From: a bacterium
GTDB lineage: Bacteria; Patescibacteriota; Microgenomatia; UBA1400; UBA12108
NCBI GenBank assembly: GCA_021788365.1
Contig: JAJYKS010000002.1
Span: forward strand, 96,521-160,520
Direction: 5' to 3'
Length of the DNA stretch: 64,000 bases
Below the pieces are notes generated by a model, which had not been told where the DNA came from, searched no databases, and saw only the letters and a list, made by a program, of their open reading frames with translations. The position numbers and the translations under genes are program-made. Below, one piece after another: positions 8,876 through 28,222 of the stretch; the stretch's first letter is position 1, and the number at the start of each line of letters is the position of its first letter.

Positions 8876-8893
8876 GGTTGTACTAGTAAAATT

Positions 8894-11951: not shown

Positions 11952-11954
11952 CTT

Positions 11955-12085
11955 TACCTACCGGTAGGAAAACACTATTTTGAGATTAGCCCGATTTATA
12001 GACCTTTTTACTTTTTATTTTTACCCCTTATTCCTTATATATAAGGGAGAGGAATGATACAATCATTCCAGATTCTGCCCACAGA
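11955..12085. promoter_or_regulatory. Candidate origin of transfer (oriT) or control region rich in palindromes
   Basis: Perfect palindromes CCTACCGGTAGG (11957-11968) and CCTTATATATAAGG (12033-12046) plus hairpin GGAATGAT-aca-ATCATTCC (12051-12069). The region lies between the T4CP gene and the replication-relaxation family gene. Confidence 0.35.
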
Positions 12086-12091
12086 CACACT

Positions 12092-12865
12092 ATGGACAAT
12101 CAAAAACTAACTACCACACAATTAAACATTCTTCACTATATCTATCGCTTTCGCTTCTTAACCAGTCTACAACTTCAAAAACTTCTTACTCACAAAAATA
12201 TCCGCCTGACTAACTACTACCTACAATTACTCACTGCAAAAAATTACATCGGCAAACACTATACTCGGTCACTCAGTCTAGCTAATATACCCGCGGTCTA
12301 TTTTCTTACCTCAGGAAGTATTCAAGTGTTAGAGAATACCGACGGAATCGAAAAACGAGCATTGAATCGGATCTATCGAGAAAAAATCCGCTCTCAACAA
12401 TTTATATCCCATACATCATTTTTAGCGGAGTACTATCTATTTCTGAGAAGTGAATCTGAAAAATCAAAGCACACACTCGATTTTTTCACGAAAACCGATC
12501 TTTTAGCACATCCCTACATAATCCATCCATTACCCGATGGTTATTTTGCGAGGGTCGATAACGTAGGCAACACTAAGCGATATTTTGTTGAAGTTATCGA
12601 GGATAGTTCACCTCGGTTTGCCTTACGTAAAAGAGTTCAGGCGTATTGTGATTATATTGATGAAGGAAAATTTGAGAGGGCCACAAGCCATCCGTTTCCG
12701 GTGATCCTCTTTATATGTCCGGGTATAGCGAGCCTTATATACCTAAAGAAACACATATCACGAATGTATGAAGAAATATCATTTGACCAAGTTGATATTT
12801 ATATCGCCACCCGTGAGGGTGCGTTTTCCGGAAAATGGGAAAAGGTGGAAGCAGAAGATGACTAA
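12092..12865 (+). CDS. Replication-relaxation (Replic_Relax) family protein; putative relaxase or mobilisation protein
   Basis: 257 aa with an N-terminal winged-helix-like segment (LTTTQLNILHYIYRFRFLTSLQLQKLL). Size and position next to the T4CP fit Replic_Relax proteins of Gram-positive ICEs. Family assignment is from memory. Confidence 0.4.
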   Translation: MDNQKLTTTQLNILHYIYRFRFLTSLQLQKLLTHKNIRLTNYYLQLLTAKNYIGKHYTRSLSLANIPAVYFLTSGSIQVLENTDGIEKRALNRIYREKIRSQQFISHTSFLAEYYLFLRSESEKSKHTLDFFTKTDLLAHPYIIHPLPDGYFARVDNVGNTKRYFVEVIEDSSPRFALRKRVQAYCDYIDEGKFERATSHPFPVILFICPGIASLIYLKKHISRMYEEISFDQVDIYIATREGAFSGKWEKVEAEDD

Positions 12866-13643: not shown

Positions 13644-13958
13644 TTATAATTTGGCACTTGGTACAACCTCACTGATCCGCTTTTCATCAAAATACAAATC
13701 ACGCTCTATCCCTAGACCGAATTGTCCGCGGTAGCTTTCGAGCTCTGCCAGTGAAAATGAACCCCATTCGTCATTCCAATCCCCAAAGATTGAAACGTAT
13801 CCGAAAAATTCCTTTGACACTGGATCATATTCGGTGGCGTACCATGTACCCGCTCCGGCTGGGTTGAAAAACTTCGCCACTACAACGGGGTCTTTGCTGT
13901 CCTCTTGTCTTCCAATCTTCGCGAACCTCATTAGTAGCTCGTTGGTTAATAGCTTCAT
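13644..13958 (-). CDS. DUF2958-family protein (plasmid/ICE associated)
   Basis: 104 aa with the motifs VVAKFFNPAGAGTWYATEYDP and FGDWNDEWGSFSLAELES characteristic of DUF2958. Confidence 0.55.
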   Translation of the reverse strand: MKLLTNELLMRFAKIGRQEDSKDPVVVAKFFNPAGAGTWYATEYDPVSKEFFGYVSIFGDWNDEWGSFSLAELESYRGQFGLGIERDLYFDEKRISEVVPSAKL

Positions 13959-14005
13959 ATGTTGTCACCTCCTTTTTTTTGGGTTTTCCCTGATAATTTA
14001 TTTTT

Positions 14006-14152
14006 GGGAAGCATGCCCATGCTTCCCATACCAGGGGAACCCTCAAGCGAGGTGAAATTTTGCAAGGGCAATCCCGCCATAGGCGGGAGCAGTTTATTGA
14101 AGGCGAAGCCGGAAACCCTTGCAAAATGAGGGGCAAGACCCCTAGAGACTCG
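14006..14152. repeat. Copy A of a ~140-nt hairpin-rich repeated element
   Basis: Perfect hairpin GGAAGCATG-CC-CATGCTTCC. Long-range stem TTTTGCAAGGG...CCCTTGCAAAA. Internal hairpins CCCGCC-ATA-GGCGGG, GGC-GAA-GCC and AGGGG-CAAGA-CCCCT. Related copies lie at 24031-24165 and 28172-28222. Confidence 0.6.
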
Positions 14153-14233
14153 ATAAATATCTGAAAAACATATTTAATTGCTTGACTCACAGAACAGTAT
14201 GGGAGTAATATATGAATATAGATTCATATTACT

Positions 14234-14590
14234 ATGTCAGACACAAATCCAGTGCGTTTACAGAAACTTTTAAAGCTTATTTCCAATGAGAATAAGTTCA
14301 ACATTATCCAACTTCTTTCCAAAGGAGAGGTTTGTGTGTGTGATATCGGCGAGAAACTAGGCATCGAGCAGTCATTAGTTTCTCACCATTTAAATTCGCT
14401 TCGAAAAGCCGGACTTATTAACGATCGCAAACTTGGAACTTGGATACACTGCTCATTAAACAGAAATGCGTTCGCAGACTTAATGTCCCTGTTTTATATG
14501 CACTTAAGTCAGGATGCGATATCGGAAAAAATGTGTTGCGTACACGATGAATGTAAATGTTTACGTAAAGGAGCAAAAAATGAAAAATAA
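14234..14590 (+). CDS. arsR: ArsR-family arsenic-responsive repressor
   Basis: 118 aa with a winged HTH and an As(III)-binding ELCVCDL-like motif (GEVCVCDIGE). It is the first gene of the ars operon. Confidence 0.8.
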   Translation: MSDTNPVRLQKLLKLISNENKFNIIQLLSKGEVCVCDIGEKLGIEQSLVSHHLNSLRKAGLINDRKLGTWIHCSLNRNAFADLMSLFYMHLSQDAISEKMCCVHDECKCLRKGAKNEK

Positions 14591-14894
14591 AATCATTATT
14601 TACGATCCACCTATGTGTTGTTCTTCAGGGGTTTGTGGACCTAATCCAAATAGAACCTTGCTTGATTTTCAAGACACCTTCAAACATTTAGTCCAAAATG
14701 GGGAATTGATTGAACGCTACATCATTACCCAAAGTCCAGAGAAATTTAAGGAAAATCCGAAAATTATTAAGCTAATCCAAGACCAAAAGTTAAAAGTTCT
14801 TCCTATTACTACAGTCAATGGAGACGTAGTAAAAACCGGATCGTATCCAACTAAAGAAGAACTTGAAAGTTATTTAGTAATTAGAAAAGCATAA
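14580..14894 (+). CDS. arsD: Arsenic metallochaperone/repressor ArsD
   Basis: N-terminus MKNKIIIYDPPMCCSSGVCGP matches the ArsD Cys12-Cys13-Cys18 motif. An RBS (aaggagc) precedes the ATG at 14580. The ORF-track start at 14514 is probably too far upstream. Confidence 0.8.
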   Translation: MKNKIIIYDPPMCCSSGVCGPNPNRTLLDFQDTFKHLVQNGELIERYIITQSPEKFKENPKIIKLIQDQKLKVLPITTVNGDVVKTGSYPTKEELESYLVIRKA

Positions 14895-14897
14895 AGC

Positions 14898-16748
14898 ATG
14901 AATACAAAATTCTTATTTTTCTCAGGTAAAGGCGGGGTGGGTAAAACAACCATGTCTTGTGCCACTGCCATTCATTATGCCAATGAAGGTAAAAAGACAT
15001 TAATTATTACCACTGACCCGGCTTCGAATCTTGCGGATGTATTTGAACAAACAATTGGCCATAAAATTACTCCCATCAAAACAATCTGGAACCTTTCAGC
15101 TATGGAGCTCGATCCGGATAAGGCTACAGCAGAGTATAAAGAACGGACGTTATCCCCTTTGCGAGGACTTATCCCAGAAGAAAGTTTTGCCGTTCTTGAA
15201 GAACAATTAAACTCACCGTGTACCGCAGAAATGGCCTCTTTTGACCGCTTTACTGATTTTGTGCAGGATGGTCAGTTTGATATTGTCATTTTTGATACCG
15301 CTCCGACCGGTCATACATTGCGTTTACTTGAGTTGCCGGTGGAATGGAGTGGGGTGATTGAAAAAGCAGCTAATGATAGTAGCGGTGGACAAACCTGTAT
15401 TGGTCCTGCGGCAGCGTTGGCAGCCTCCAAAGCCAAGTTTGATCGAGCTATCACTGTCATGCGAGATCCCAGAATTACAACTTTTCTATTCGTTCTGCGC
15501 CCCGAATCAACACCAATCTATGAAGCTGAGCGCTCTATTTCCGAGCTGAATAAGTTAGATATTCACTCGTTGGAGATCATCGTCAACGGAGTCTATCCAG
15601 CAGAAGCTTGTGACAATCCCTTCATGACTGCGCGGTTTATGAAACAACAGGAGTTTTTAAAGGCAATTAACCAGAAGTTTTCGGTTCCCGCTCGAATCGT
15701 TGAATTAGGCTCCGAAGAAATCAAAGGAGTTGAACGTCTAGCTTCAATTGCCGTCAAACTCTTTGATAATCCAACAGAACTGATAGATTATCAATACAAA
15801 AATCTGGAGGTGAAAGAATCGTCTGCAACTCATGGTTATGTTTTACCCAACGAAAACATAAAGAAATTGCTCACCCCCTTAAATGAGAAGAAACGGGTGA
15901 TCTTTTTTGCCGGTAAAGGCGGTGTGGGTAAGACCTCGATTTCCGCCGCTACCGCTCTCTGGGTGGCCCAAGCCGGATACAAGACATTATTGTTAACCAC
16001 TGATCCAGCCTCTCACTTAAAACAGATTTTTGATCAAGAAGTCACTGACAAACCTACTCTGGTGAACGGAGAGAAAAATTTATGGTTTACACATATTGAC
16101 GCTAAAAAAGCGGTAGAAGAATACAAGGAGAAAATTCTCTCTGAGGCTCGAACTAAATATGATAAAGATCGCGTCACTGCTATTGAAGAGGAGCTAAACT
16201 CACCCTGTACCGAAGAAATGGCCACCTTTGAAAAATTTATTGAGTTTGTCGCCCGAAAAGACTTTGAGGTAATTGTATTTGACACGGCTCCCACTGGTCA
16301 TACGTTACGATTGCTCGAATTACCCGTGGACTGGAACAGGCAATTGGAAATTAAAACTTTTACCACAACAGGTGAAACCGATGTCGATAAGATAACTAAG
16401 TCTAAATTTAAGGAAGTGATTGATCTGCTTCAGGATCCAGATCAGACTACATTTAGTTTTGTTATGTATCCGGAAGCAACACCAATTGAAGAAGCATCTA
16501 GGGCGATTAAGGAACTCTTAACCATCAGCGTCCCTACTAGTCTGATTGCGGCTAACTTAATTCTTTCCGAAACTATTGTTACCAATGAGTATTTACGGCA
16601 ACGAAAGGCCATGCAGGAGAAATATCTAGCTGTAATGGCTAAACGCTTTACAGCCCCCATCGTTACTCTCCCACTCCTAAAAGAAGATTTAATGGGCAAA
16701 GATCGATTGCGTGAAGCTGGTTATCTATTGTATGGAAAATTAAACTAA
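14898..16748 (+). CDS. arsA: Arsenite-transporting ATPase ArsA (duplicated halves)
   Basis: 616 aa with two P-loops (GKGGVGKTT twice) and two TDPASNL/TDPASHL motifs. A metalloid-binding Cys is present. Confidence 0.9.
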   Translation: MNTKFLFFSGKGGVGKTTMSCATAIHYANEGKKTLIITTDPASNLADVFEQTIGHKITPIKTIWNLSAMELDPDKATAEYKERTLSPLRGLIPEESFAVLEEQLNSPCTAEMASFDRFTDFVQDGQFDIVIFDTAPTGHTLRLLELPVEWSGVIEKAANDSSGGQTCIGPAAALAASKAKFDRAITVMRDPRITTFLFVLRPESTPIYEAERSISELNKLDIHSLEIIVNGVYPAEACDNPFMTARFMKQQEFLKAINQKFSVPARIVELGSEEIKGVERLASIAVKLFDNPTELIDYQYKNLEVKESSATHGYVLPNENIKKLLTPLNEKKRVIFFAGKGGVGKTSISAATALWVAQAGYKTLLLTTDPASHLKQIFDQEVTDKPTLVNGEKNLWFTHIDAKKAVEEYKEKILSEARTKYDKDRVTAIEEELNSPCTEEMATFEKFIEFVARKDFEVIVFDTAPTGHTLRLLELPVDWNRQLEIKTFTTTGETDVDKITKSKFKEVIDLLQDPDQTTFSFVMYPEATPIEEASRAIKELLTISVPTSLIAANLILSETIVTNEYLRQRKAMQEKYLAVMAKRFTAPIVTLPLLKEDLMGKDRLREAGYLLYGKLN

Positions 16749-16753
16749 AACGT

Positions 16754-17116
16754 ATGAACGACCAACTTTTACAACTTGTCCGTGGTTTTTCTCAAGAATT
16801 GGTAAATGAAATACCTGAATTTCAGGAACTCATTCAAGCGAAACAGGCACTCGATAGAGATCCGGTGTCACAACGATTATGGCAAGAAAAGGAAGAGCAA
16901 CGACAAACTGTAGACTTACTAAAAAAACAAGGTTTACCAGTATCAACCGAACAGGAGCAGAGATTGTTTCAAAAACTCCAAGAGATGCGGGAGAACCCTA
17001 TCACGATGCGATATCTTAAGGCTATCAATTTTGCTAATAAAATATCAGGCAAAATCGGCGCCGAATTATTTGATTTTATCGGGGTTGACTTTGCCCCAAG
17101 AAAGGGGTGTGCATAA
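16754..17116 (+). CDS. YlbF/YmcA (UPF0342)-like protein ending in a Cys motif
   Basis: 120 aa helical protein with the YlbF-like pattern (EFQELIQAKQAL...PVSQRLWQEKEE...NPITMRYLKA). The C-terminus reads PRKGCA. Confidence 0.4.
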   Translation: MNDQLLQLVRGFSQELVNEIPEFQELIQAKQALDRDPVSQRLWQEKEEQRQTVDLLKKQGLPVSTEQEQRLFQKLQEMRENPITMRYLKAINFANKISGKIGAELFDFIGVDFAPRKGCA

Positions 17117-17484
17117 TGTCAAAACAAATCTATTCTAAAACAAAAGACTACATTCAATCCTTACTGGATACTGATGAAGTGAAAGCCTATACCAAAGCGG
17201 TTGATGATTTTCAAAACGATATCGAGGCTAAAAAACTACTGAAAGATTTGCAGGAATCACAACAAACGCTTGCTGTATTTCGACAGGGTGGATTTACAGG
17301 TGTAGAAGAACAGGAGCGTAAAGTGAAGCTTTTGCGGAATAAAGTTTCTAAAGATAAAAAAGTTCAAATCTTAATAAGATCACAACAAGAGTTACAAGAT
17401 TTAGTGGGTGCATTGGCGGGAGAAATCAGTCAAGCAATTAATTTCCCATTTGCCCAACCACAACGAGGAGGGTGCTGCGGCTAA
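17107..17484 (+). CDS. Second YlbF/YmcA (UPF0342)-like paralog with a Cys-rich C-terminus
   Basis: 125 aa with the same family pattern (EVKAYTKAVDDFQND...AKKLLKDLQESQQ). The C-terminus reads QRGGCCG. It overlaps the previous gene by 10 nt. Confidence 0.4.
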   Translation: MCIMSKQIYSKTKDYIQSLLDTDEVKAYTKAVDDFQNDIEAKKLLKDLQESQQTLAVFRQGGFTGVEEQERKVKLLRNKVSKDKKVQILIRSQQELQDLVGALAGEISQAINFPFAQPQRGGCCG

Positions 17485-17487
17485 ACT

Positions 17488-18228
17488 ATGAAAAACATTA
17501 AGCAAATAGTCAAAGAAAATTATTGCCAAATCGCCAAGCAAAATAGTTCGTGCTGCGGTGGTGGTTCATGCTGTAATGGTAGTTTGCCAGATTTAAGCAA
17601 AATTATCGGGTATACCGACGAACAGATAACTGAAGTACCGGATGGCGCCAATCTCGGTTTGGGTTGTGGTAACCCACTCGCTTTAGCAACATTGAAACCA
17701 GGAGAAACGGTATTGGATTTGGGCTCAGGAGCTGGCTTTGACGTATTTCTAGCATCTCGGAAAGTAGGATCCAGCGGTAAGGTTATTGGTGTGGATATGA
17801 CTGAAGAAATGATTAAAAAAGCCAGGAAGAATGCTATTACCGGTAAATTTACAAACGTTGAGTTTAAACTGGGAGATATTGAAAATTTACCCGTAGAAAG
17901 TTCAACCATTGATGCAATTATTTCCAATTGTGTCATTAATTTAGCACCGAATAAGAATAAGGTTTTTGCTGAAGCTTACCGAGTACTAAAGCCCGGTGGC
18001 AGATTGATGATCTCCGATGTAGTGTTATCAAAGGAACTACCAGAGAATCTAAAAGGTGACGAAGCACTGCTAACTGGTTGCGTTAGTGGAGCCATTCTAA
18101 AAGAAGACTATTTGCAAATGATAAAGGAAGCTGGATTTAAAGAAGTCAAAATTACCAAGGAAGTGCCGATGTTCATGGAAGCGTATGCACTAAGCATTTC
18201 ATTTACTGCAAAGAAAGTTAATAAATAA
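17488..18228 (+). CDS. arsM: Arsenite S-adenosylmethionine methyltransferase ArsM
   Basis: 246 aa. N-terminal Cys cluster ([10 protein letters not shown]). SAM-binding motif [13 protein letters not shown] and the conserved C-terminal VSGA region. Confidence 0.8.
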
Positions 18229-18424
18229 TGAGTAACAAATTATGATAAATATATTTTATTGTCAAAAATGCAAAAGGAAAATGATGATTTCAATAAATAT
18301 GCTGAAGAGTTACAAAATAGAGGTGGCGGATGTTATGTCGATAGAGTGTGCCACGGCTAAACTATGAAAAACACAAATACTTTTATTTGTTGACATTTAC
18401 AATTGTTTTTTATAGCATTAACAT

Positions 18425-18811
18425 ATGTCTTCATCAAAAAAAGTTGATTTAGTGAGTATGGCAGATTCGGCCTGTCAAACGGAAATTCCTCGATATAGAA
18501 AGAATGGAACACCTTTCCTGTCAAATTCTATGCTCATCAATTTTTCAACTTTTGCCCATGCACTTAGCGATAGTATCCGACTTCAAATGCTCTTTTTGTT
18601 GACACAATATCCTGACCTATGTACCTGTGAATTCGAGGAGCTTTTATCTATAAGTCAATCGAAAGTGTCTTATCACCTCAAGATACTCACTGATGCTCAA
18701 CTTGTTTCACGAAAAACGCAAGGAACATGGAGTCACTTTAGTCTTATTCGGAAAGATATTTTTAATGAGCTTCAACCCTTTACTAAATTTAAGAAAAAAA
18801 ACCAATCATAA
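18425..18811 (+). CDS. ArsR/SmtB-family metal-responsive regulator
   Basis: 128 aa with an HTH and a LCTCE metal-site motif. It immediately precedes a P1B ATPase. A candidate promoter TTGACA(18390-18395)-N16-TATAGC lies upstream. Confidence 0.7.
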   Translation: MSSSKKVDLVSMADSACQTEIPRYRKNGTPFLSNSMLINFSTFAHALSDSIRLQMLFLLTQYPDLCTCEFEELLSISQSKVSYHLKILTDAQLVSRKTQGTWSHFSLIRKDIFNELQPFTKFKKKNQS

Positions 18812-21072
18812 TGAAAAATAATCATTCAAAAAAATCTATTAAGACAGTTGAAATACCTATTCAAGGCATGACCTGCGTTGACTGTTCGTTTGATATTGAG
18901 GCTGCTATAAAAAAGGTACCAGGCGTGCAAACTGTTGAGGTACTCGTAAACTCCGAAAAGGCACACGTCCAATTCGATCCAACGAAAGCATCGATTGAGG
19001 ATATTCACTCTGCGATAGAAAATGCTGGCTATTGCACCCCGCTTTCTCTTCAACCAACAGTGCAACCAAAAAATCCATCGGATACTCAAATACCGTTGGG
19101 AAATTTTACTAATCGCATTTTAATACTATTTGGAATTGTGTTTGGAGTGGTTTTACTTGTTGTCGTGATGGGTGAAGTGCTTGGGATATTTGATCGTTAC
19201 ACAGAGCAAATACCATGGTTTGTCTGGCTTATTTTAGTGATTATCAGCGGGTATTCGATTTTTCGAGGAGTTATTCAAGCAACACTAAGAAAACAGATAA
19301 CCTCGCATACCCTCATGACGGTGGGGCTTATTGCAGCTGCAGTTGTTGGAGAATGGACTACAGCACTACTTATCGTTTTTTTCATGCGAGTTGCCGAGTA
19401 TGTTGAGAAATTTACTACTGAACGTGCCAGGCAAGCTCTGAAAAACCTTACCCGACTTGCTCCACTCACAGCTCGAATAGAAAAAAATGGAGAGGAACAA
19501 GAAGTCATGATTGGGGCAGTACAGAAAGACGATATTGTTATCGTCCGACCAGGAGAACGTATTCCCGTTGACGGTGTTGTTATCGATGGCCAAGCAACAG
19601 TAAATCAAGCAGCGATTACAGGTGAATCAATGCCGGCAGAAGTCGGTGTCGGAGCGAAAGTATATGCTGCAACAATAGCACAATTCGGGACGCTTCGCAT
19701 TCGCACCACTCTTATCGGTGAAGATACAACTTTTGGCAAAGTGATTAAATTGGTTGAGGAGGCAGAAACCCATCGAGCAGACGTACAACGAGTTGCGGAT
19801 AAGTTTTCCGCATACTATTTACCGGTTGTTGTCGTTGTAGCAACACTCACATTTGTATTTAGTCACAATCCTTTGGCGACCGCTGCCGTTTTAGTCGTTG
19901 CCTGTTCCTGTTCGTTTGCCATGGCTACCCCCATAGCCGTTTTAGCTTCAGTGGGAGCGGCTGCTAAGAGAGGCCTGCTTGTTAAAGGAGGAAAATACCT
20001 TGAAGAGCTCTCGCGTATTGATGTTTTATTGATTGATAAGACTGGGACTTTGACTTTAGGTCGTCCTACAATTTTAGACGTAGTTTCTTTGGGTAAAATG
20101 ACAGAGAGTGAAATTGTTAAACTGGCTGCTTCTGCAGAAAGGTATTCAGAGCATCCCTTAGCTGAAGCGGTACGAACTCTCGCACACAATCGAAATATTA
20201 CTTTGTCTCAACCAAGTGAGTTTGTGGCCATACCAGGAAAAGGAATTCGGACAAAAATCTCAGATAAATCAATTGCCGTGGGAAGCAAACGTCTCTTTAC
20301 AGACAGTATGTTAAACGATAAAAAAATCCATGAAATAATTTCCAAACTTGAAATACAGGGAAAGACATGTTTGATAGTTTCGCAAGATGATACTATTGTC
20401 GGAATATTAGCAGCTTCAGATACAACGAGAACTGAAGTGCCCAAAGCGATAGATGACCTTCGTGCACTGGGCATCAAAAAAATAGAGCTGTTGACTGGTG
20501 ACAATGAACGAGTCGCCGCTTCACTTGCAAATACTTTAAAAGTTGATTACCAGGCTGGTCTTCTCCCTGAAGACAAAATACGAATCGTAAAAGAATATCA
20601 GAAAAAAGGTCACACTGTTGCAATGATTGGTGATGGGGTAAACGATGCTCCCGCTCTTGCCCAAGCCAATGTCGGAATTGCCATGGGAGCAGCCGGCACT
20701 GATGTCGCAATTGAGGCAGCACATATTGCATTGATGCGCGATGATTGGGCGCTTATACCAGAGGTCATCCATATATCTCGCCGTACCATGTCTGTTGTTA
20801 AATTTAATATTGGATTCACTGTTGTGTACAACTTTATTGGTTTAGCGCTCGCATCAACTGGCATTTTACCTCCTGTGTTTGCAGCGGCTGCCCAAACACT
20901 GCCCGATTTAATTATTTTAGGAAATTCATCTCGTTTATTAAAAAGGAGTGTATTTACAAAAAATATTCCTATTAATAAAGTAAAATTTACTAACAGAAAT
21001 GAAAAAGGAGCTGAATGCGATCCAAATACCTGCGCATGCGGCTCAGTATCAATTGATCAGGTACACTCTTAA
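18811..21072 (+). CDS. Heavy-metal P1B-type ATPase with a non-canonical CSC transmembrane motif
   Basis: 753 aa. N-terminal HMA domain (GMTCVDCSFDIEAA). DKTGTLT phosphorylation site and GDGVNDAP motif. The TM6 motif reads VVACSCSFAMATP where CPC is expected. A Cys-rich C-terminal tail (CDPNTCACGS) is present. Confidence 0.85.
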   Translation: MKNNHSKKSIKTVEIPIQGMTCVDCSFDIEAAIKKVPGVQTVEVLVNSEKAHVQFDPTKASIEDIHSAIENAGYCTPLSLQPTVQPKNPSDTQIPLGNFTNRILILFGIVFGVVLLVVVMGEVLGIFDRYTEQIPWFVWLILVIISGYSIFRGVIQATLRKQITSHTLMTVGLIAAAVVGEWTTALLIVFFMRVAEYVEKFTTERARQALKNLTRLAPLTARIEKNGEEQEVMIGAVQKDDIVIVRPGERIPVDGVVIDGQATVNQAAITGESMPAEVGVGAKVYAATIAQFGTLRIRTTLIGEDTTFGKVIKLVEEAETHRADVQRVADKFSAYYLPVVVVVATLTFVFSHNPLATAAVLVVACSCSFAMATPIAVLASVGAAAKRGLLVKGGKYLEELSRIDVLLIDKTGTLTLGRPTILDVVSLGKMTESEIVKLAASAERYSEHPLAEAVRTLAHNRNITLSQPSEFVAIPGKGIRTKISDKSIAVGSKRLFTDSMLNDKKIHEIISKLEIQGKTCLIVSQDDTIVGILAASDTTRTEVPKAIDDLRALGIKKIELLTGDNERVAASLANTLKVDYQAGLLPEDKIRIVKEYQKKGHTVAMIGDGVNDAPALAQANVGIAMGAAGTDVAIEAAHIALMRDDWALIPEVIHISRRTMSVVKFNIGFTVVYNFIGLALASTGILPPVFAAAAQTLPDLIILGNSSRLLKRSVFTKNIPINKVKFTNRNEKGAECDPNTCACGSVSIDQVHS

Positions 21073-21077
21073 ATTAT

Positions 21078-21725
21078 ATGAGCAAAAAGAAACATAATCT
21101 TAGACAATCATCTTATGATCCGTCCATGGAGACAGTCATGCCTATGGAGAATCCGGTATCGAGTAAGAATAATCTGCAAGTCTTATTTCTTGCGCTTGGG
21201 ATCGGTATCGTTTTGATATTAATATTGGCAAATCGTTTACTAGACCTGAAAAATAATACAAGCAATGGATCAGTAAAGGCTGTAAGTACGATTCAAGGAG
21301 TAGGAGGTATAACATGGAGTGTTCCAACGATTGACGGAGGCACATATGATTTTGCAGAGCATAAGGGAAAGCCGACGGTTTTATTCCTAAGTTCTTCATG
21401 GTGTAAAGAATGTCGAGGTGAAGTGGCAAAATTAGCCCGTGTATACAACACATACAAAAATAAGGGGCTGGAGATTGTTGCTCTTGATATCTATCCTCAG
21501 GAGGGTCCAGAGCCGTGGAGACAGTTTAAGGATGATGGCGCGGGTGGCGAGACTGTAAATTATGTGTGGGCTATGGATACAAATAATCAGATTGCTCGTC
21601 TATTAAACGTTCAATATTTGGATACAAAAATATTTATAAACAGTCAAGGAAAAGAGGTAGCACGTACCCTTGGTATTCGCCCTTACGAAGAGATTGAAGC
21701 ACATGTTAAGGAGACGCTTCAATGA
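21078..21725 (+). CDS. Membrane-anchored thioredoxin-like (TlpA/ResA-like) thiol-disulfide oxidoreductase
   Basis: 215 aa with an N-terminal TM segment and a WCKEC CxxC motif in a thioredoxin-fold context. Confidence 0.65.
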   Translation: MSKKKHNLRQSSYDPSMETVMPMENPVSSKNNLQVLFLALGIGIVLILILANRLLDLKNNTSNGSVKAVSTIQGVGGITWSVPTIDGGTYDFAEHKGKPTVLFLSSSWCKECRGEVAKLARVYNTYKNKGLEIVALDIYPQEGPEPWRQFKDDGAGGETVNYVWAMDTNNQIARLLNVQYLDTKIFINSQGKEVARTLGIRPYEEIEAHVKETLQ

Positions 21726-22417
21726 ACAATCTCCCTCTAGCGTATGCATTCGGCGCCGGATTGCTGGCGACCTTAAATCCATGTTGTGTGGCAATGCTTC
21801 CATCCTTCCTCGCGTTTTATATCGGAGCCAATAACGAAGGCTACGAGCACATTCCACTACATAGTCGCCTAAAGAATGCAGTTATGACAGGAATCCTTGT
21901 CACATTAGGGTTCTTAACCATATATCTTGGTGGTGGCATCTTGGTAAGTCTAGGCTTACAAATGTTTATCAACTGGGTACCTCAACTTACGATCCTCATA
22001 GGGTCCATTTTAATGGTAATGGGCGGGACTATGCTCCTAGGGCACTCTCTTAAGGTTCATCTATTTCATCCACAATGGAGCGTAAAAAAAACGGGATTAT
22101 TGCCAATGTTTTTATATGGGGTAAGTTATGCAATTGCATCGTTATCGTGCACATTGCCAATGTTCTTGATTATCGTAGGCAGTACAGCCTCTGCTCCAGG
22201 ACCACTATCGACACTGCTTATGTTTCTGAGTTATGGGTTGGGAATCGCAGTTGTTCTTATTGGTATCACCTGCGCAACTATGCTCTTTCAGACTGCAGTA
22301 AATCGATGGCTGCACAGAATTCTTCCATATGTTCAGATAGTTAGCGGGTTGCTTCTGATTGGGGTGGGAGCGTATTTAATCTATTATCAATTACACTTTG
22401 CCTTTAGGTTGTTTTAA
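21722..22417 (+). CDS. CcdA/DsbD-family transmembrane electron transporter
   Basis: 231 aa multi-TM protein with an NPCCVAMLPSFLAFY signature. It is translationally coupled to the thioredoxin-like gene. Confidence 0.7.
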   Translation: MNNLPLAYAFGAGLLATLNPCCVAMLPSFLAFYIGANNEGYEHIPLHSRLKNAVMTGILVTLGFLTIYLGGGILVSLGLQMFINWVPQLTILIGSILMVMGGTMLLGHSLKVHLFHPQWSVKKTGLLPMFLYGVSYAIASLSCTLPMFLIIVGSTASAPGPLSTLLMFLSYGLGIAVVLIGITCATMLFQTAVNRWLHRILPYVQIVSGLLLIGVGAYLIYYQLHFAFRLF

Positions 22418-22419
22418 TA

Positions 22420-23139
22420 TCAATCCTCACCAGGAAACACATATTTTGATAGCATTGGTCGAGGCAGTTCAGACTCGGAACCAAAGGTCACCAGGATTTC
22501 ATCGTGCTGATTAAGGGGTAGTTGTCTTGGATCACCTTGATACTGTTTCCCATTAACAAAAACGGTTAGTTTATTAGTTTCATCAATAGTATAGCCACCA
22601 ATATTTTTTTCGGTGAAAAATACACCCCAGACATCAAAAAATAATCCGAGCGTTGGCTTAAAAGTAGTATCTGACGCTTCGACATGAATAATGCCTGTCG
22701 GATCATGTGTATGCGTAGGCAATTCCACTGTACTGGAAAGTCCAATTTGCGCAGGGACAACAATATTCTGGTTATGGATATAAATATCTAAATGGTCATG
22801 GTGGTGTAGATATGACGGGTCTGCAGGTGGTAAATGAAGCAAGGCTGTAAGTTCGGGCAACATATCTGCATTCGGTTTCCAAGTTGAGTTCTTAGTCAAA
22901 TCTAACGTTTGATGAGATAAACGGTTTTGCACAAAGTTCACATTGTTTACGCTGGTTGAAGTTTCAGATGCAGGCGGATAATTCTGTTGCGTTAAATTGT
23001 GTTGATTTGATTTAATCAAGAATAAAGCACTAGTAACAACTACAATTACGATAAGAGCAATCTTTATTATCCAATTACGTTGATTATTTTGTCTATTTAC
23101 GTACGTCGTCATATTAAATCTCTCCCGACACCTGAGCAT
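22420..23139 (-). CDS. His-rich secreted or membrane-anchored hypothetical protein
   Basis: 239 aa with an N-terminal TM segment and a His cluster (YLHHHDHLDIYIH, PTHTHDP), suggesting metal binding. Confidence 0.4.
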   Translation of the reverse strand: MLRCRERFNMTTYVNRQNNQRNWIIKIALIVIVVVTSALFLIKSNQHNLTQQNYPPASETSTSVNNVNFVQNRLSHQTLDLTKNSTWKPNADMLPELTALLHLPPADPSYLHHHDHLDIYIHNQNIVVPAQIGLSSTVELPTHTHDPTGIIHVEASDTTFKPTLGLFFDVWGVFFTEKNIGGYTIDETNKLTVFVNGKQYQGDPRQLPLNQHDEILVTFGSESELPRPMLSKYVFPGED

Positions 23140-23259
23140 TTTCTTCTCCTTTTTTTGTCAAATGTCGTAGTTCGTAATACATAATCTTTATTATAGTAAA
23201 TTATAACTAAAGATTCTTGCTTGTTCGTAACATAGACGAACACTGAATAAAGTTCCGGA

Positions 23260-23837
23260 AGGTGCCAATTTGGGTTTAGGGTTTGGCAGGCACTTGCTTT
23301 GGCTGCACTGCTATCAGAAGAAACAGTATTAGATCTAGAGTCAGACGCTGGTTTAAGTCTTTTTAGCTGCCTGCAAGGTAGGAAGTACAGGCAAAGTTAT
23401 CAGTGTTGGTAGTACTGAAGAAATGATTACAAATGCAAGGTAAATGCTGCCTCCGGTAAATTTACAAATGTTGAGTTTTGTCTTGGAGATACTGAAAATT
23501 TACCTACAGTAAGCGTAACCATCGATGCGATTATTTCTAATTATGTGATAAATTTAGCACCGAATAAGGATAAGGTCTTTGCTGACACTTACCGAGTATT
23601 AAAACCGGAGTCAGATTGATGATTTCCGACGTAGTGCTATCAAAAGTATTACCAGAAAATCTCAAAGAGGATAGTACATTGCGCACAGGATGTGTCAGCG
23701 GTGCTATCTTAAAAAATAACTATCTCAAAATACTAAATGAGGCCGGATTCAAAGACATCAGCATAACAAAGAAGGTACCGATGTTCATAGAGGAATATGC
23801 GTTAAGTATTTCATTTACAGCAATAAAACCAAAGTAA
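23260..23837 (+). pseudogene. Degraded second copy of arsM
   Basis: Nucleotide-level similarity to arsM 17640-18228, but with several stops and frameshifts. Only the last 73 codons (23616..23837) remain open and match the ArsM C-terminus (MISDVVLSK...ALSISFTA). Confidence 0.6.
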
Positions 23838-24030
23838 AGGTTAGTTGCACTATGAATAAATTTTTCTATGAATAATGCAAATTAGGATTTGAAGTCTAAG
23901 AAAATAATCTTGAATATTAAGATCAGCAATGTCTTCTCACCTGCCTAATTTGCAAATCTCGTTAGAGCTAATTTGTAAAAAATTTCATAATTTCACACCT
24001 CCTTTTGACTTCTTCCCGAAATTAATTGTT

Positions 24031-24165
24031 AGGAAGTATGACCATACTTCCCATACCTGGGAATCTTTCTAGCGGGGTGAAATTTTGCAATGGCAAACGA
24101 AGTGCAGTTTATTGAAGCGAAGCGGAAACCCTTGCAAAAAGAGGGGCAAGGCCCTTAAAAGAATC
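24031..24165. repeat. Copy B of the ~140-nt hairpin-rich element
   Basis: Aligns with copy A. Hairpin 1 is GGAAGTATG-AC-CATACTTCC, with a compensatory C:G to T:A change relative to copy A. The TTTTGCAATGG...CCCTTGCAAAA and AGGGG-CAAGG-CCCTT stems are conserved. The internal hairpin is deleted. Confidence 0.6.
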
Positions 24166-24176
24166 GCATTTGATAA

Positions 24177-25466
24177 CTATTTCTGTATAAAGGGAAACTG
24201 ATAATACGTTGCTTTGCTACCGAGCTGCCGCTCAATTCTCATAAGTCGATTATATTTTGCTACCCGTTCGCTTCGGGCGGGAGCGCCGGTTTTCATTTGT
24301 CCTATTCCCATTGCAACGGTAAAATCAGCTATAAATGTATCTTCCGTTTCTCCACTCCTATGGGAAACGACTGATGACATGCCGTTTTTCCGAGCAAGTA
24401 ACACTGCGTCAACCGTTTCTGTCAACGTGCCGATTTGATTCAGTTTGATGAGAACAGAGTTAGTCGTTTTACTATCTATGCCTTTTTGTAATAGTTTTAC
24501 GTTTGTCACATACAAATCATCGCCGACAATTTGTAATTTGTCCTCATACGACGAGGTAAATCTTTGAAATGCTTCCCAGTCATCCTCAGCAAATATATCT
24601 TCAAGGGAAATGATGGGATATTTTTTGGCAAGTTGTGTAAAAAATTCCGCTAGTTCATCACTGTTCACTGTTTTTCCTTCTTTACTGAGTTGGTATGTTC
24701 CATTTTTATAAAATTCAGATGCGGCAGGATCAATACCAAAACTAATATCTCTGCCAAGAATATAGTTTGCTTTTTCTATTGCCTCAGACAATAATTGAAA
24801 TGGCTCTTCATTTGATGTTACATTTGGAGCAAAACCACCCTCATCACCAACAGTTACACTGTAACCTTTTGTTTTTAGAATCTTTTTGAGACTTTGATAA
24901 ACCTCAGTATTCATGCGTACCGCCTCAACTATATTTTTTACTCCAATCGGAAACAGCATATATTCCTGAATATCGGTTGCCCAATTAGCGTGCTTACCAC
25001 CATTCATAACATTCATTTCTGGAATTGGCATGAGATATGTTCCCATAAAATCAGGATTAAATTTCGTAAGGTATTCGTAGAGTTCTTTTTTTTCAGTTGC
25101 CGCTTGTGCTCTGGCGGCACTCAGCGATACAGAAAGAATTGCATTGGTGCCAAGCTTTGCTTTATTTTCTGTACCATCCAAGTCAATTAACGTTTGATCA
25201 AGCTTCCGTTGATCCTGCGCATCTATACCTGAAACTGCATTGCTAATAATTGAATTCACATTGGCAACGGCGGACAGCACACCCTTTCCGTTATAACGAT
25301 TGATATCTCCATCACGAAGTTCAACGGCTTCGTGTTTTCCGGTAGAAGCGCCTGATGGTATAGCGGCCCAACCTGTTGATCCATCTTCAAGAATTGTTAC
25401 CGCTTCAATCGTCGGATTTCCCCGACTATCAAGAATTTCTTGTGCATTTACTGATCTAATTTTCAT
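24177..25466 (-). CDS. eno: Enolase (phosphopyruvate hydratase), island-borne copy
   Basis: 429 aa with a canonical N-terminus (IRSVNAQEILDSRGNPTIEAV) and the SHRSGETED motif. It is the last gene of the fluoride-riboswitch operon. Confidence 0.95.
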   Translation of the reverse strand: MKIRSVNAQEILDSRGNPTIEAVTILEDGSTGWAAIPSGASTGKHEAVELRDGDINRYNGKGVLSAVANVNSIISNAVSGIDAQDQRKLDQTLIDLDGTENKAKLGTNAILSVSLSAARAQAATEKKELYEYLTKFNPDFMGTYLMPIPEMNVMNGGKHANWATDIQEYMLFPIGVKNIVEAVRMNTEVYQSLKKILKTKGYSVTVGDEGGFAPNVTSNEEPFQLLSEAIEKANYILGRDISFGIDPAASEFYKNGTYQLSKEGKTVNSDELAEFFTQLAKKYPIISLEDIFAEDDWEAFQRFTSSYEDKLQIVGDDLYVTNVKLLQKGIDSKTTNSVLIKLNQIGTLTETVDAVLLARKNGMSSVVSHRSGETEDTFIADFTVAMGIGQMKTGAPARSERVAKYNRLMRIERQLGSKATYYQFPFIQK

Positions 25467-26656
25467 ACGCGAAAGTATCTCTTTCTATGATACATAACAA
25501 ATATGGCAAGTGCGAGTATTGCCATCACACTGCCATACAAAAACGTTGCAGATGGTTTTATTGTATTCCAGAGAATTCCGCCAATAAAAGAAGCCAAAAA
25601 TGTCCCGATTGCCGTAATCGTATAATACGCTCCAAAATATGTTCCGGATTCCTCAGGATGGATAAATTCGGCGATGTACGCCTTTGACACTCCGTCGGTC
25701 GCTGCAATATAGATGCCATATATAGGAAACAAAAACCAGAGTAATTGCGTCGTATGAATGATTCCAAAGGCGAAATATACGATTGCAAAGATCAGGAGAC
25801 CAAATAAATAGACTTTTTTCGGTCCCAAACGGTCCGATGTTTTTCCAAGCGGCGTGGAAAATGCCGTATACGATATGTTATAGAGCACATAGGCAAGAAC
25901 GACAAAGGTTGTTGTAAGTCCTAAGTTTTTTGCCTGTAGGAGAAGAAACGCATCGGAGCTGTTACCCGCCGAAAAAATAAAGCTGATTAGCAAAAAAAAT
26001 TTTAATTCCTTGGGTATAGTTCGCCAGGAAAAACGACTTAAACGGTACTGAGATGTAATGGTCGCCCGTTTTGTTTCACCAACAAAAAAGAATATGAGAA
26101 GTATAGCGATAACTGCAGGAATGAACGCGATAAAGAATGTCAGTCGGATATTTTCTTTGAATAGTGCTAAGAGAACTAGAGCCGCAAGTGGCCCAAATAC
26201 TGCACCTAGGCTATCAAACGCGCGATGGAATCCGAAAATGAATCCTCGGTTCGTGCGGTTGGTATTATCGAGAAGTAAACTATCTCGCGCTGCGGTCCGC
26301 ATGCCTTTGCCGAGACGGTCAATAAAGCGGGCAAAGAGGACAAGCGGCCACGTGTACGCAAGACCGATAAGCACCTTTGAAACCGCTCCTAGCGTATAGC
26401 CGCCTATTACAAATGGTTTCCGCTTATGAATTGAATCGGAATATACGCCAAATAAGAACTTCGTGATGCTTGCGGTTGCCTCGGCAATACCTTCGATCAA
26501 CCCAATGACTGGAATTGTCGTGTGAAGAACTGAGGTTAAGAAAATCGGGACTATCGGGTAAATCATTTCCGACGCCAGATCATTGAAAAAACTCACCAAA
26601 CCCAAAAAGAAGACTGTTCGTGGGATAGATGTCAGTTTTTTCGTTACTATGGACAT
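25463..26656 (-). CDS. MFS transporter
   Basis: 397 aa with 12 predicted TM segments and the MFS loop motif (RFIDRLGKGMRTAARD). Confidence 0.8.
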   Translation of the reverse strand: MSIVTKKLTSIPRTVFFLGLVSFFNDLASEMIYPIVPIFLTSVLHTTIPVIGLIEGIAEATASITKFLFGVYSDSIHKRKPFVIGGYTLGAVSKVLIGLAYTWPLVLFARFIDRLGKGMRTAARDSLLLDNTNRTNRGFIFGFHRAFDSLGAVFGPLAALVLLALFKENIRLTFFIAFIPAVIAILLIFFFVGETKRATITSQYRLSRFSWRTIPKELKFFLLISFIFSAGNSSDAFLLLQAKNLGLTTTFVVLAYVLYNISYTAFSTPLGKTSDRLGPKKVYLFGLLIFAIVYFAFGIIHTTQLLWFLFPIYGIYIAATDGVSKAYIAEFIHPEESGTYFGAYYTITAIGTFLASFIGGILWNTIKPSATFLYGSVMAILALAIFVMYHRKRYFRV

Positions 26657-26670
26657 GATTTTATTGTACG

Positions 26671-27195
26671 CTACTTACCCTCAGCGGCGAACCGTTTTTG
26701 CGCTTCATTGATAATCCTATATGCTTCCGTTTTATTAAGCCAACCTACAACTTCAACGTTTTTTTCTTCGAGATGTTTATACACTTCAAAGAAATGGACT
26801 ATTTCCTTTCTGTGATGTTCGTTTACGTCGTCAATCTCCTTGAGATACGATAGTTTTGGATCCCTATCAGCAACAGCAAGAATTTTCCAATCCTGACCGG
26901 CATTATCATTCATGTTCAACATTCCAATAGGTCGAACAGTTAAGATACAACCAGGGAATGTGGGTTCAGTTATAAGAACAAGCACATCTAAATGATCGCC
27001 GTCTTCTGAACGAGTTTGTGGAATAAAACCATAGTCTGTCGGATAAAAGACTGGTGAATGCAGGACTCGGTCAAGTCGAATTTCGTCAAAGTTTTCGTCG
27101 TACTCATATTTGTGATGCGATCCTCGAGGAATCTCAACGATAACAGTAATTATTTCCGGAGCTTTATCTCCGAGTGGAATTGTATGAAATGCCAT
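26671..27195 (-). CDS. ppa: Family I inorganic pyrophosphatase
   Basis: 174 aa with the motifs EIPRGS..KYE, DGDHLDVLV and the DNAGQDWK-type pattern of soluble PPases. Confidence 0.9.
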   Translation of the reverse strand: MAFHTIPLGDKAPEIITVIVEIPRGSHHKYEYDENFDEIRLDRVLHSPVFYPTDYGFIPQTRSEDGDHLDVLVLITEPTFPGCILTVRPIGMLNMNDNAGQDWKILAVADRDPKLSYLKEIDDVNEHHRKEIVHFFEVYKHLEEKNVEVVGWLNKTEAYRIINEAQKRFAAEGK

Positions 27196-27197
27196 AT

Positions 27198-27539
27198 TTA
27201 TCCTTTCTTCCCATATTGAATAATTTGAACTCGCTCTTGAGTTATTAATGTGCTCGCGGATATATCCCAGGTTGAATACACTTGTTTAAATTGCTCAATT
27301 TTTTCTTCCCTATCAACAACTTCGACTATAATTGGCTCATCAGAAGAAAGTTCTAGGATGTTTGCCGTATGGATTTTACTGGCTTTTCCATACCCCTCTA
27401 TGCCACGAAGAACAGTGACGCCAGCGAAATGATTTGTCCTAAGGTATTCGACAATATACATATATAACGTTTTCCCTTGATATTTATCTTTCTCACCCAT
27501 GTATATGCGAAGTAATAGTACTGTTGATTCTTGTTCCAT
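27198..27539 (-). CDS. DUF190-family protein (commonly fluoride-riboswitch associated)
   Basis: 113 aa with LLLRIYMGEKDKYQGKTLYMYIVEYLR...AGVTVLRGIEGYG, matching the DUF190 pattern usually found next to crcB. Confidence 0.7.
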   Translation of the reverse strand: MEQESTVLLLRIYMGEKDKYQGKTLYMYIVEYLRTNHFAGVTVLRGIEGYGKASKIHTANILELSSDEPIIVEVVDREEKIEQFKQVYSTWDISASTLITQERVQIIQYGKKG

Positions 27540-27541
27540 AG

Positions 27542-27919
27542 TTACTTAGTTATCAATATTGCCAAATTTCTGCTTAATCCAATTGCCAATAAGCATAACA
27601 GTATGTTTGCAGAGAGATTTATACCAAATAATAATACATCGTTCATCTCTGCAAGTCTTACAGACTCAAAAGCAAACGTTGACATAGTGGTATAAGCACC
27701 AATAAATCCAACGGTTATCATATTACGAATATCTGGATTGATATTTCTGCCATATAGCACCATATAGCTGATAAATCCGAGAAAAAAACTTCCTGTAACG
27801 TTCACGAATAAGGTGCCTATAGGAAATGACGGGAAAAGATTACCTATAAAGCGGGAAATAATAAATCTACTGATACTGCCAAAAAATCCACCAATTCCAA
27901 TATAGATAACTTGTTGCAT
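27542..27919 (-). CDS. crcB: Fluoride ion channel CrcB/Fluc
   Basis: 125 aa, 4 TM segments, with the characteristic N-terminus (IGIGGFFGSISRF...GTLFVNVTGSFFLG). Confidence 0.85.
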   Translation of the reverse strand: MQQVIYIGIGGFFGSISRFIISRFIGNLFPSFPIGTLFVNVTGSFFLGFISYMVLYGRNINPDIRNMITVGFIGAYTTMSTFAFESVRLAEMNDVLLFGINLSANILLCLLAIGLSRNLAILITK

Positions 27920-27920
27920 A

Positions 27921-27997
27921 AAAAAAAAGCTCCTACAAAAATATTTGTAGAAGCTATCAGCCTTTCGGCACTTATAGAGCGAGCTTCATCGCTTACG
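27921..27997 (-). ncRNA. Fluoride riboswitch (crcB motif) with an intrinsic-terminator expression platform
   Basis: The minus strand reads AGCGAUGAAGCUCGCU-CUAUAA-GUGCCGAAAGGC-UGAUAGCUUCUAC. This matches the fluoride aptamer architecture: GCGAUGRRGYUCGC P1, a GNRA-capped P3, the conserved GAUGnnUUCUAC-like 3' segment, and a GAAGCU/AGCUUC pseudoknot. It is followed by hairpin CUACAAA-UAUU-UUUGUAG and U8 immediately 5' of the crcB ATG. Confidence 0.7.
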
Positions 27998-28171
27998 TTG
28001 TATTATAGTTGTGAAAAATATTGTTTGCAAGGTGACTATTGTTTGGGTAAATATCAAAGATAGATTAGACCCAATACTGATCGTTGCCTCTCTGTTTCGT
28101 CACCATTCATGAAGCAAATACTCGCACAATAAAAACAGTAATCAGTTTCCTCAAAATTGGTCAAAACTATC

Positions 28172-28222
28172 GAAACAAAGCAGAAACCTTTCAAAAAGAG
28201 GGATAAGACCGTTAAATCTCTA
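28172..28222. repeat. Partial copy C of the hairpin-rich element (3' portion only)
   Basis: GAAACAAAGCAGAAACCTTTCAAAAAGAGGGATAAGACCGTTAAATCTC aligns with the 3' third of copies A and B (GAAGCGGAAACCCTTGCAAAAAGAGGGGCAAGGCCCTTAAAAGAATC). Confidence 0.45.

Follow-up and report, generated by a model that had tools for sequence, protein, structure and literature searches.

In a 64,000-nt stretch of a Patescibacteriota genome (contig JAJYKS010000002.1, positions 96,521–160,520; hereafter the window), a hairpin-rich element recurs within an integrative and conjugative element (ICE) that carries metal-resistance cargo. We found that this element is very probably a real, conserved and structured cis-acting cassette of ICE establishment genes, and not a miniature inverted-repeat transposable element (MITE) or a free small RNA (sRNA). 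A search for further copies and homologs located the cassette, ~185 nt in length, in more than 130 loci, mostly of Patescibacteria and in constant orientation. Every strong match that has a gene on its 3' side is sense to that gene, and the copies are confined to this ICE context. A first-pass annotation of the window had measured the element at ~140 nt, offered a MITE-like element, a recombination site that assembled the cargo or a structured sRNA as explanations, and argued against a cis-regulatory leader on the ground that the orientation placed copies B and C upstream of no gene. The repeat is longer and runs through the ribosome-binding site, and the strand was missed in that argument, which fails: copy A, on the minus strand, reaches precisely to the start codon of a DUF2958 gene (13958–13644), copy B stands before the truncated remainder of another DUF2958 gene, whose codon 7 is a stop, and in over 100 loci the minus-strand element lies immediately ahead of the start of a gene. 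A free-standing sRNA is not supported, as the conserved block passes unbroken into the ribosome-binding site.

A protein scan for DUF2958 among species-representative genomes returned 80 loci, mostly from metagenome-assembled genomes of Patescibacteria, and in ~45 of them the element lies directly upstream of DUF2958 with the same backbone synteny. Across the genome loci, 46 covariance-model or blastn matches abut the DUF2958 ATG as in the window. At least 120 stretches were retrieved by a metagenome scan with an invariant 18-mer, and covariance model R1 found more than 85 further copies in metagenome contigs. The genes downstream are mostly DUF2958, in two subfamilies. ArdC-like proteins take this position after the second copy of locus L024 and in L167 and L120/L194 (ArdcN matches at or near threshold), and elsewhere it is occupied by small unknown proteins or, on one weak match, an N6/N4 DNA methylase. 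In proteobacterial and Bacteroides plasmids, DUF2958 is found among ArdC-like, ParB and methylase genes, types that are enriched in plasmid leading regions (PMC11541004). The downstream gene set and these plasmid neighbors together imply that the element is a modular front end for establishment and anti-restriction genes. Nothing points to a riboswitch, as the downstream genes are of mobile-element types and do not belong to a single metabolic or transport pathway, and no Rfam family matched the element (gathering scores; E up to 10 on the element and up to 1 on four other loci). The Rfam scans returned tRNAs and a fluoride riboswitch only.

Two loci show particular arrangements. In the complete genome of WWE3 bacterium RAAC2 (L024), a second full cassette (8144–9093) lies 2.3 kb from the first, ahead of a gene for a 260-aa ArdC-like protein; its P3 hairpin differs (CAGGAGGC/GCCTCCTG) and the downstream repeat matches that change. 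In L045 (5629–6001), the cassette precedes an open reading frame (ORF) of ~70 aa with no Shine-Dalgarno (SD) sequence, itself upstream of DUF2958.

Read in the sense direction, the cassette begins with hairpin P1, at which similarity among loci starts abruptly, the sequences upstream of it being unrelated (coordinates of all features are given in Table 1). The pair closing its loop covaries (UA 46, CG 26, UG 15) and after the hairpin comes TCTTTTT or CATTTT; in the window, copy B begins shortly past the end of the enolase gene and copy C shortly past that of copA. P1 is a possible terminator or insulator, as we infer from these features, and may persist in relics of the cassette as a terminator. 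In most loci the upstream gene is divergent, and a terminator scan did not call P1 on the minus strand. P2, a stem of 12–13 bp (CATTTTGCAAGGGT/GCCCTTGCAAAAT), closes a three-way junction with two smaller hairpins, P2a and P2b. Its inner seven pairs do not vary. L045, L050, L040 and L066 show compensatory changes; in L045, the arms have been altered in this way to GTCAAGGG/CCCTTGAC. P2a is 100% Watson-Crick paired in 98 sequences, with GC/CG/UA exchanges, and its loop reads GAA on the + strand in 59 homologs. P2b in most homologs is GCGAAGC, ACGAAGT or GTGAAAC on the + strand, while in copy A and L015 a 7-bp stem replaces the mini-hairpin, which indicates that structure and not sequence is conserved here.

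The junction is followed by the linker TTCACCyCGCTT, which resembles the 16S anti-SD sequence, and then by a variable hairpin, the P3 hairpin, an A/T-rich linker, a GGGAAG repeat and an extended SD. The GGGAAG motif occurs three times in the cassette. In minimum free energy (MFE) folds, TCACC of the linker pairs with the SD, with a mean probability of ~0.6 that the SD is paired; no correlation was found between the linker TCACCCY and the type of SD, and the linker is kept even where the SD differs. The downstream repeat (X2) can pair with the 3' arm of P3 in many lineages, though some lack this, and upstream TTCCC offers a nested pairing that is just as possible. A divergent subgroup of alignment A5 (e.g., L154, L186, L099, L086) has no P2a and carries CAAGATAAC in place of CAATAAAC; the P1 loop of this subgroup is TGC in sense, i.e., GCA on the + strand, another GNA loop.

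The three stems that the first-pass annotation had named (P3, P2 and P1) all exist, and the compensatory change that it had reported is borne out by covariation in wide alignments. Among 46 sequences, 95.7% of the cells are paired and compensatory changes affect 19 of the 33 pairs; none of 500 shuffles reached the observed value, and slid controls gave 39–57%. With 98 distinct sequences, the corresponding figures are 94.0% and 20 of 33. All ten pairs of P3 covary (97.9% of cells paired in the 98 sequences), including the C:G to T:A exchange between copies A and B in GGGAAGyATG/CATrCTTCCC, while 99.4% of P2b is paired, again with exchanges among GC, CG and UA. RNAalifold recovered these P1, P2 and P3 stems from a plain MAFFT alignment as well. 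As for the copies in the window, the 11-bp long-range stem described earlier (TTTTGCAAGGG/CCCTTGCAAAA), which is P2, pairs throughout in A but for B contains a single mismatch, and the AGGGG-CAAG-CCCCT hairpin, which is P1, has an A.C mismatch in B.

Counts of G.T and A.C mismatches bear on which strand is under selection, and different helices give opposite answers. A test of G.U against C.A over the whole structure was undecided on 46 sequences, and became informative solely when made per helix on 98. In P3, G.T outnumbers A.C by 23 to 3, so that this hairpin seems to be selected on the sense strand, as in an mRNA; together with covariation at every pair, this is the behavior expected of an mRNA leader. 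P3 is also more stable in sense in 41 sequences and in antisense in 11. In the outer stem of P2, A.C/C.A reaches 43 and G.T only 1, meaning that the antisense strand pairs better, and with DNA parameters the P2 domain is more stable in antisense in 87 of 97 sequences.

The small hairpins of the junction are of a kind known from single-stranded DNA. DNA mini-hairpins of the GCGNAGC/GCGNNAGC type have been described as "extraordinarily stable," two base pairs being enough owing to a sheared G.A pair in the loop; they mark the primase origins of G4/St-1/alpha3, RSF1010 ssiA and the N4 hairpin promoters, and bind poorly to SSB, the binding protein of single-stranded DNA (PMC13037366). On the + strand, P2a and P2b take the forms GCGAAGC, GGCGAAGCC, ACGAAGT, GTGAAAC, GCGTAGC, GCGCAGC and GGCGATAGCC. 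Of ~150 loops, 136 are GNA or GNNA (GAA 112, GTA 12, GCA 4, GATA 8), with C-G as closing pair in 119 and T-A in 36. A 2-bp stem with a UUC loop has no reason to be kept for stability in RNA, and its strict preservation argues for reading it as + strand DNA. These features suggest that part of the cassette may work as single-stranded DNA during transfer.

The best-supported mechanism that we can infer is that the P2 junction works as single-stranded DNA in a manner like the Frpo/ssi elements of plasmids F and ColIb-P9 (Masai and Arai, 1997; Samuel and Burstein, 2024, PMC11541004), for which, judging from sequence, we see an about even chance. Transfer or rolling-circle replication would yield a single + strand of the window, the template strand of DUF2958. 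This strand would fold into the P2 junction, in which duplex TTGCAA, a −35-like hexamer, would lie beside a pre-opened, SSB-resistant junction; RNA polymerase, or primase, would be recruited there and start. The RNA would run toward DUF2958, leading to early expression and possibly to priming of the complementary strand, both of which are served by the Frpo transcript (PMC11541004), and in this RNA P3 and the anti-SD-like linker would act as a leader. If the relaxase-sense strand were nicked and displaced as in rolling-circle elements, it is the + strand that would become single-stranded; the DUF2958 operon, like the ArdC gene, is in every case convergent with the relaxase-like gene of the ICE, which fits template-strand transfer from a candidate origin of transfer (oriT) upstream of that gene.

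In its fullest form, this proposal makes the cassette a two-strand device: the junction, stiffened by its two GNA mini-hairpins, would be a pre-opened, SSB-resistant promoter or priming site, active only while the ICE is single-stranded, and the hairpin and anti-SD-like leader of the transcript would gate the translation of anti-restriction genes. We put this forward tentatively, as falling somewhat short of probable. If true, it would extend single-strand promoters beyond the Frpo family for the first time, and for Patescibacteria ICEs it would be the first evidence of an early-gene program at DNA entry. The best explanation as a whole, comprising the cassette, the single-strand junction mechanism and the origin of copies B and C as scars (see below), stands in our estimate just on the probable side.

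Several observations weigh against the single-strand mechanism. The divergent subgroup mentioned above is devoid of both P2a and the CAATAAAC junction. There is no recognizable −10 in the cassette, and the P2 duplex, at only 12–13 bp, contrasts with the long imperfect hairpin found in Frpo. The strand signals of P1 are mixed (17 vs. 19), and the strand asymmetries reflect few independent events, with 32 of the 43 A.C cells coming from the group of TTGACA variants. Alignments A4 and A5 were fitted to the structure of the model. A sequence-specific protein, and not the stability of the hairpins, could be the reason why the GAA loops are conserved. Finally, the drift of the P2 5' arm to perfect TTGACA suggests some ordinary double-strand promoter activity.

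This last point leads to the most serious competitor, an ordinary promoter with a structured mRNA leader, in which the region from P2 (or P1) to the SD would comprise a duplex promoter and a 5' untranslated region (for SD sequestration by TCACC, stability or protein binding) and no single-strand DNA step would be involved. We consider it unlikely, but several observations favor it: the unbroken passage of the cassette into SD and start codon (more than 100 loci), the sense-strand G.U of P3, the linker-SD pairing in MFE folds and the X2 repeat, which tracks changes of the P3 arm in several lineages. In addition, about one third of the copies have a perfect TTGACA in the P2 5' arm, at the cost of two stem pairs, and a −35 function is therefore likely. 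The matching promoter was not detected, however, as a sigma-70 scan of the minus strand returned none, and none conserved upstream of P1 emerged when TAnnnT and TTGnnn were counted by position in 97 loci. The only −10-like hexamer, TYCAAT, is without the key A and lies 16–22 nt from TTGACA because the P2a stem, which covaries between these two candidate boxes, changes its length; such a variable spacing is incompatible with a linear duplex promoter, but not with a folded one. An ordinary leader also leaves unexplained why 2-bp UUC-loop hairpins, unstable in RNA, are fully Watson-Crick paired and covarying, why their complements are canonical GNA DNA mini-hairpins, why the linker is conserved despite differing SDs, and why the outer stem of P2 pairs better on the other strand. 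Three promoter candidates picked by eye (TTGACA-N16-22-TYCAAT, TTCACC-N19-20-TATnGG and the sigma-54-like CTGCAC-N5-TTGC) were rejected for variable spacing or a missing −11A, T−7 or GG.

Among known systems, the cassette comes closest to Frpo/ssi. Like them, it folds, is non-coding, lies immediately ahead of anti-restriction or establishment genes, has a fixed orientation, can recur within one element and holds a −35-like hexamer in a stem, and its proposed product is both mRNA and primer. It shares the Frpo-type location, being upstream of and sense to DUF2958, ArdC-like and methylase genes, although the leading region is here a putative one, and the structural asymmetry would point to the template (+) strand as the folded one. 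The architecture is different: Frpo is a long imperfect hairpin that carries both −35 and −10, whereas here we see a stem of just 12–13 bp with TTGCAA or TTGACA, no −10 and a three-way junction. The element had no blastn match among 72,556 plasmid records, which should include F-like plasmids, Frpo/ssi themselves being compared by description, and the hosts are Patescibacteria ICEs with a monoderm-type type IV secretion system (T4SS). As the element fails the architectural definition of Frpo, it is filed as a variant of the Frpo kind. A looser parallel is STAXI (RF01728; Weinberg, 2010, PMC2864571), a structured motif near ssb, topoisomerase, antirestriction and integrase genes that was discussed as possible single-stranded DNA; it differs in consisting of tandem pseudoknots with UUCG loops and in being found in Enterobacteria, and it did not emerge from our Rfam searches even at E up to 10.

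Two further groups of signals bear on the view that the cassette is a DNA-processing site with no role in expression, i.e., a single-strand origin (sso), a primosome site or an oriT that merely happens to lie beside DUF2958. The primase ssi signals (G4/St-1/alpha3 origins, RSF1010 ssiA; PMC13037366) share with it the GCGNAGC/GCGNNAGC-type mini-hairpins (GAA, GTA, GCA and GATA loops, closed by C-G) in a larger folded strand, and ssoA/ssoT of rolling-circle plasmids and ICEBs1 are likewise orientation-specific folds of ~150–200 nt near a relaxase gene, with a single-stranded stage. The strictly conserved orientation and the distance of ~1 kb from a relaxase-like gene agree with such a function. 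Yet neither ssi nor sso signals are tied to a start codon, and the cassette has two mini-hairpins in one junction followed by an RNA-type hairpin and an SD. CS-6 of sso (TAGCGT/A, in the terminal loop) and recombination site B (RSB) were not identified in an informal comparison: only (A/T)AGCGG, a loose resemblance, occurs, in the + strand linker and not in a terminal loop. The fixed distance to the start codons of different genes and the two full copies in L024 would be needless for an oriT or sso, the sequence of P3 is free to vary, which is untypical of relaxase recognition, and a better oriT candidate exists in the palindromic block between the genes for the type IV coupling protein (T4CP) and the relaxase-like protein. 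We therefore regard a pure DNA-processing site as improbable.

The location of the copies at the junctions between cargo modules, noted in the first-pass annotation, is confirmed, and the same pattern is present in loci L150 and L168. Copies A and B are real homologs by blastn (76% identity over 179 nt, E = 4e-28); the repeat search of the window aligned 13995–14071 with 24020–24096 (82% identity) and 14110–14144 with 24123–24157 (91% identity). Their repeat spans the ribosome-binding site and extends in B ~17 codons into a gene stub (13936–13976 vs. 23966–24006). Since the reading frame of B stops at codon 7 of the second DUF2958 remnant, B is a cassette to which the dead 5' stub of that gene is still joined. 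Of the 2.5 copies originally counted, A and B are thus secure, while C is a weak relic: it shows 69% identity over 35 nt, reaches 13.8 bits with the covariance model (E = 0.16) and was missed by nhmmer at 1e-3, and its ~55 nt line up by eye with the first third of the element. Copy A, presumably a functional cassette, folds far better than shuffled sequences (z = −6.2 as RNA, −6.1 as DNA and −5.3 for + strand DNA), and copy B no better than them (z = −0.4 as RNA and +0.35 for + strand DNA).

The simplest account is that B and C are not working sites but scars of tandem ICE accretion followed by deletion. Related ICEs would have accreted in tandem and the redundant backbone would have been lost from the DUF2958 side, leaving the remainder of each cassette joined to the next cargo block. 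This reading is based on a second ICE in tandem at 60–64 kb of the window, on arrays of relics elsewhere, on the mere 76% identity between A and B and on the gene stub of B. By its sequence, copy B appears to derive from a different ICE variant and not from transposition of A. In L150, a single full cassette stands before DUF2958, with two relics upstream of it, and L168 holds one full cassette and two relics with LexA-like, SRAP and Y-family polymerase genes between them, all in one orientation in either locus. The relics always retain the cargo-side P1 end and break off at model positions 40, 50, 61, 65, 67 and 69, or inside the gene in the case of B. No intact precursor of B, i.e., a fluoride/copA module beside a live DUF2958, was found, as there were no cargo homologs among 200 loci. 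A seemingly split copy in L025 was discarded, being only apparent and caused by a run of N.

The same arrangement could be taken for the work of a mobile or recombinogenic element, such as a MITE or a site of the attI/attC kind where cargo would be inserted by a recombinase or relaxase. In its favor, copies and relics occupy cargo junctions in a single orientation in the window, L150 and L168, and the breaks of the two relics of L150, at model positions 67 and 69, lie no more than 3 nt apart. The other breakpoints range from position 40 into the DUF2958 gene, and an exact recombination breakpoint was accordingly rejected; the suggestion that a recombination site assembled the cargo was loosely right as to the junctions, but not as to fixed points of exchange. 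A relic is always the cargo-side part, as one-sided deletion predicts, B stems from a diverged ICE and not from a transposed A, and tandem accretion of ICEs is seen directly. For a MITE, we found no terminal inverted repeats and no target-site duplications; the copies are not dispersed, the full ones are tied to gene starts in constant orientation, and upstream of P1 the flanks are not homologous, whereas the 3' end keeps its place at a start codon. A mobile element is, for these reasons, very improbable. We give equally little credence to double-strand operator palindromes, in which P2, P2a, P2b and P3 would be repressor sites (e.g., for a small operon protein) and covariation would come from co-evolving half-sites, because, for all the sequence invariance of the inner P2 arms and the linker and the threefold GGGAAG motif, P3 varies at all ten pairs with a bias of G.T over A.C not expected of palindromic protein sites, the spacing of the P2 arms ranges from ~33 to 60 nt, and a long stem can replace the P2b mini-hairpin in the window copy and L015.

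Table 1. Positions in the window of the cassette parts, its copies and the surrounding ICE genes.
Feature	Position	Strand	Remarks
P1 hairpin AGGGGyCTTrCCCCT	14130–14144	−	followed by a T-run on the minus strand; sharp upstream border of conservation
P2 5' arm CATTTTGCAAGGGT	14116–14129	−	TTGACA in ~1/3 of homologs
P2a mini-hairpin	14103–14111	+	reads GGCGAAGCC on the + strand; GNA triloop type
Junction strand CAATAAAC	14093–14100	−	between P2a and P2b; nearly invariant
P2b hairpin	14073–14089	+	long variant TCCCGCC-ATA-GGCGGGA in copy A
P2 3' arm and linker GCCCTTGCAAAA(T)TTCACCyCGCTT	14046–14070	−	most invariant stretch (25 nt)
P3 hairpin TGGGAAGCATG/CATGCTTCCCA	14005–14028 (A); 24031–24052 (B)	−	10-bp stem; in mRNA leader
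GGGAA repeat X2 and extended SD GGAGGTG	13966–13992	−	X2 at ~13986–13990, SD at 13966–13972; ahead of ATG 13958–13956
Copy A	13959–14148	−	complete cassette: P1, P2 three-way junction, invariant stretch, P3, SD; covariance model 173.7 bits
Copy B	23989–24161	−	full-length, decaying; covariance model 182.5 bits; mismatches in P1 and P2
DUF2958 dead 5' stub	23936–23988	−	joined to copy B; MKFFTN*; repeat match and translation
Copy C	28160–28216	−	~55-nt degenerate relic, 5' part alone (P1, P2 5' arm, P2a, junction); directly past the copA stop
DUF2958 gene	13644–13958	−	104 aa; first of a four-gene operon; Pfam PF11171, E = 1.6e-19
tRNA	6972–7053		left border of the ICE
Serine recombinase	6937–8679	−	
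T4CP	9360–11951		
Replic_Relax protein (PF13814)	12092–12865		
T4SS pilin/TrbL and VirB4 genes	from 52.7 kb		
Second ICE	60146–63998		start of the element; same family, in tandem; serine recombinase and T4CP; tblastn
Second ICE serine recombinase	60146–61699	−	27% identical to the first (tblastn)
Second ICE T4CP	62169 to beyond 63998	+	56% identity over 619 aa (tblastn)
Second ICE 170-aa ORF	59560–60072	−	

We determined that the ICE of the window is ordered as serine recombinase, T4CP, Replic_Relax, DUF2958 operon, cassette, ~38 kb of cargo (arsenic, fluoride, copper and other metal genes) and T4SS. DUF2958 is followed in its operon by orf59, orf50 and orf164, which reach 12866, and the synteny of this operon is kept in ~40 loci. 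In cargo-poor relatives, the first T4SS gene lies just 1.2–2.2 kb from the element, which marks the upstream side of the element as a cargo hotspot. A Replic_Relax protein (PF13814) adjoins T4CP in every related ICE. T4SS genes are near-ubiquitous in Patescibacteria, and conjugation in these bacteria is debated, as relaxases and other hallmarks are rarely detected; a survey that found relaxases in few of their T4SS loci asked whether very different relaxases await discovery (PMC12102498). The Replic_Relax family may be this missing Patescibacteria relaxase. The intergenic block between T4CP and the relaxase-like gene (11952–12091) is conserved across 16 loci, with palindromes CCTACCGGTAGG and CCTTATATATAAGG, and also holds GGAATGATACAATCATTCC together with an extended −10 (TGATACAAT); we regard the block as a plausible candidate for both an oriT and the relaxase promoter.

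Replic_Relax with a candidate oriT, antirestriction-type genes and a widespread, strongly conserved front-end element, with an anatomy that points to a function as single-stranded DNA, are features of working conjugation in this ICE family, and jointly they would speak directly, at the level of sequence, for single-strand transfer and an early-gene program in these bacteria. The element itself offers a defined object of 190 nt for in vitro testing, and its covariance model a marker for finding such ICEs along with their cargo hotspot, while tandem accretion followed by deletion is offered as an explanation of how large metal-resistance islands are assembled.

Some observations on the surroundings of the relics may be added. 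The DUF2958 stub of copy B directly adjoins a decayed second copy of the arsM methyltransferase gene (23352–23830 vs. 17738–18216; 71–82% identity in three frame-shifted blocks). A fluoride riboswitch (27941–28002, minus strand, 37.4 bits) precedes the crcB-crcB-...-MFS-enolase operon and begins only ~160 nt after relic C. In L168 (2242–5540), the genes flanked by relics encode a LexA/UmuD-like peptidase, a YedK-like SRAP protein and a Y-family polymerase, an organization that recalls the umu-like operons bordering plasmid anti-defense islands. At the other end of the ICE, the 3' end of the serine recombinase ORF overlaps the tRNA gene beside the chromosomal uvrBAC genes, and this overlap is likely the integration site of the ICE.

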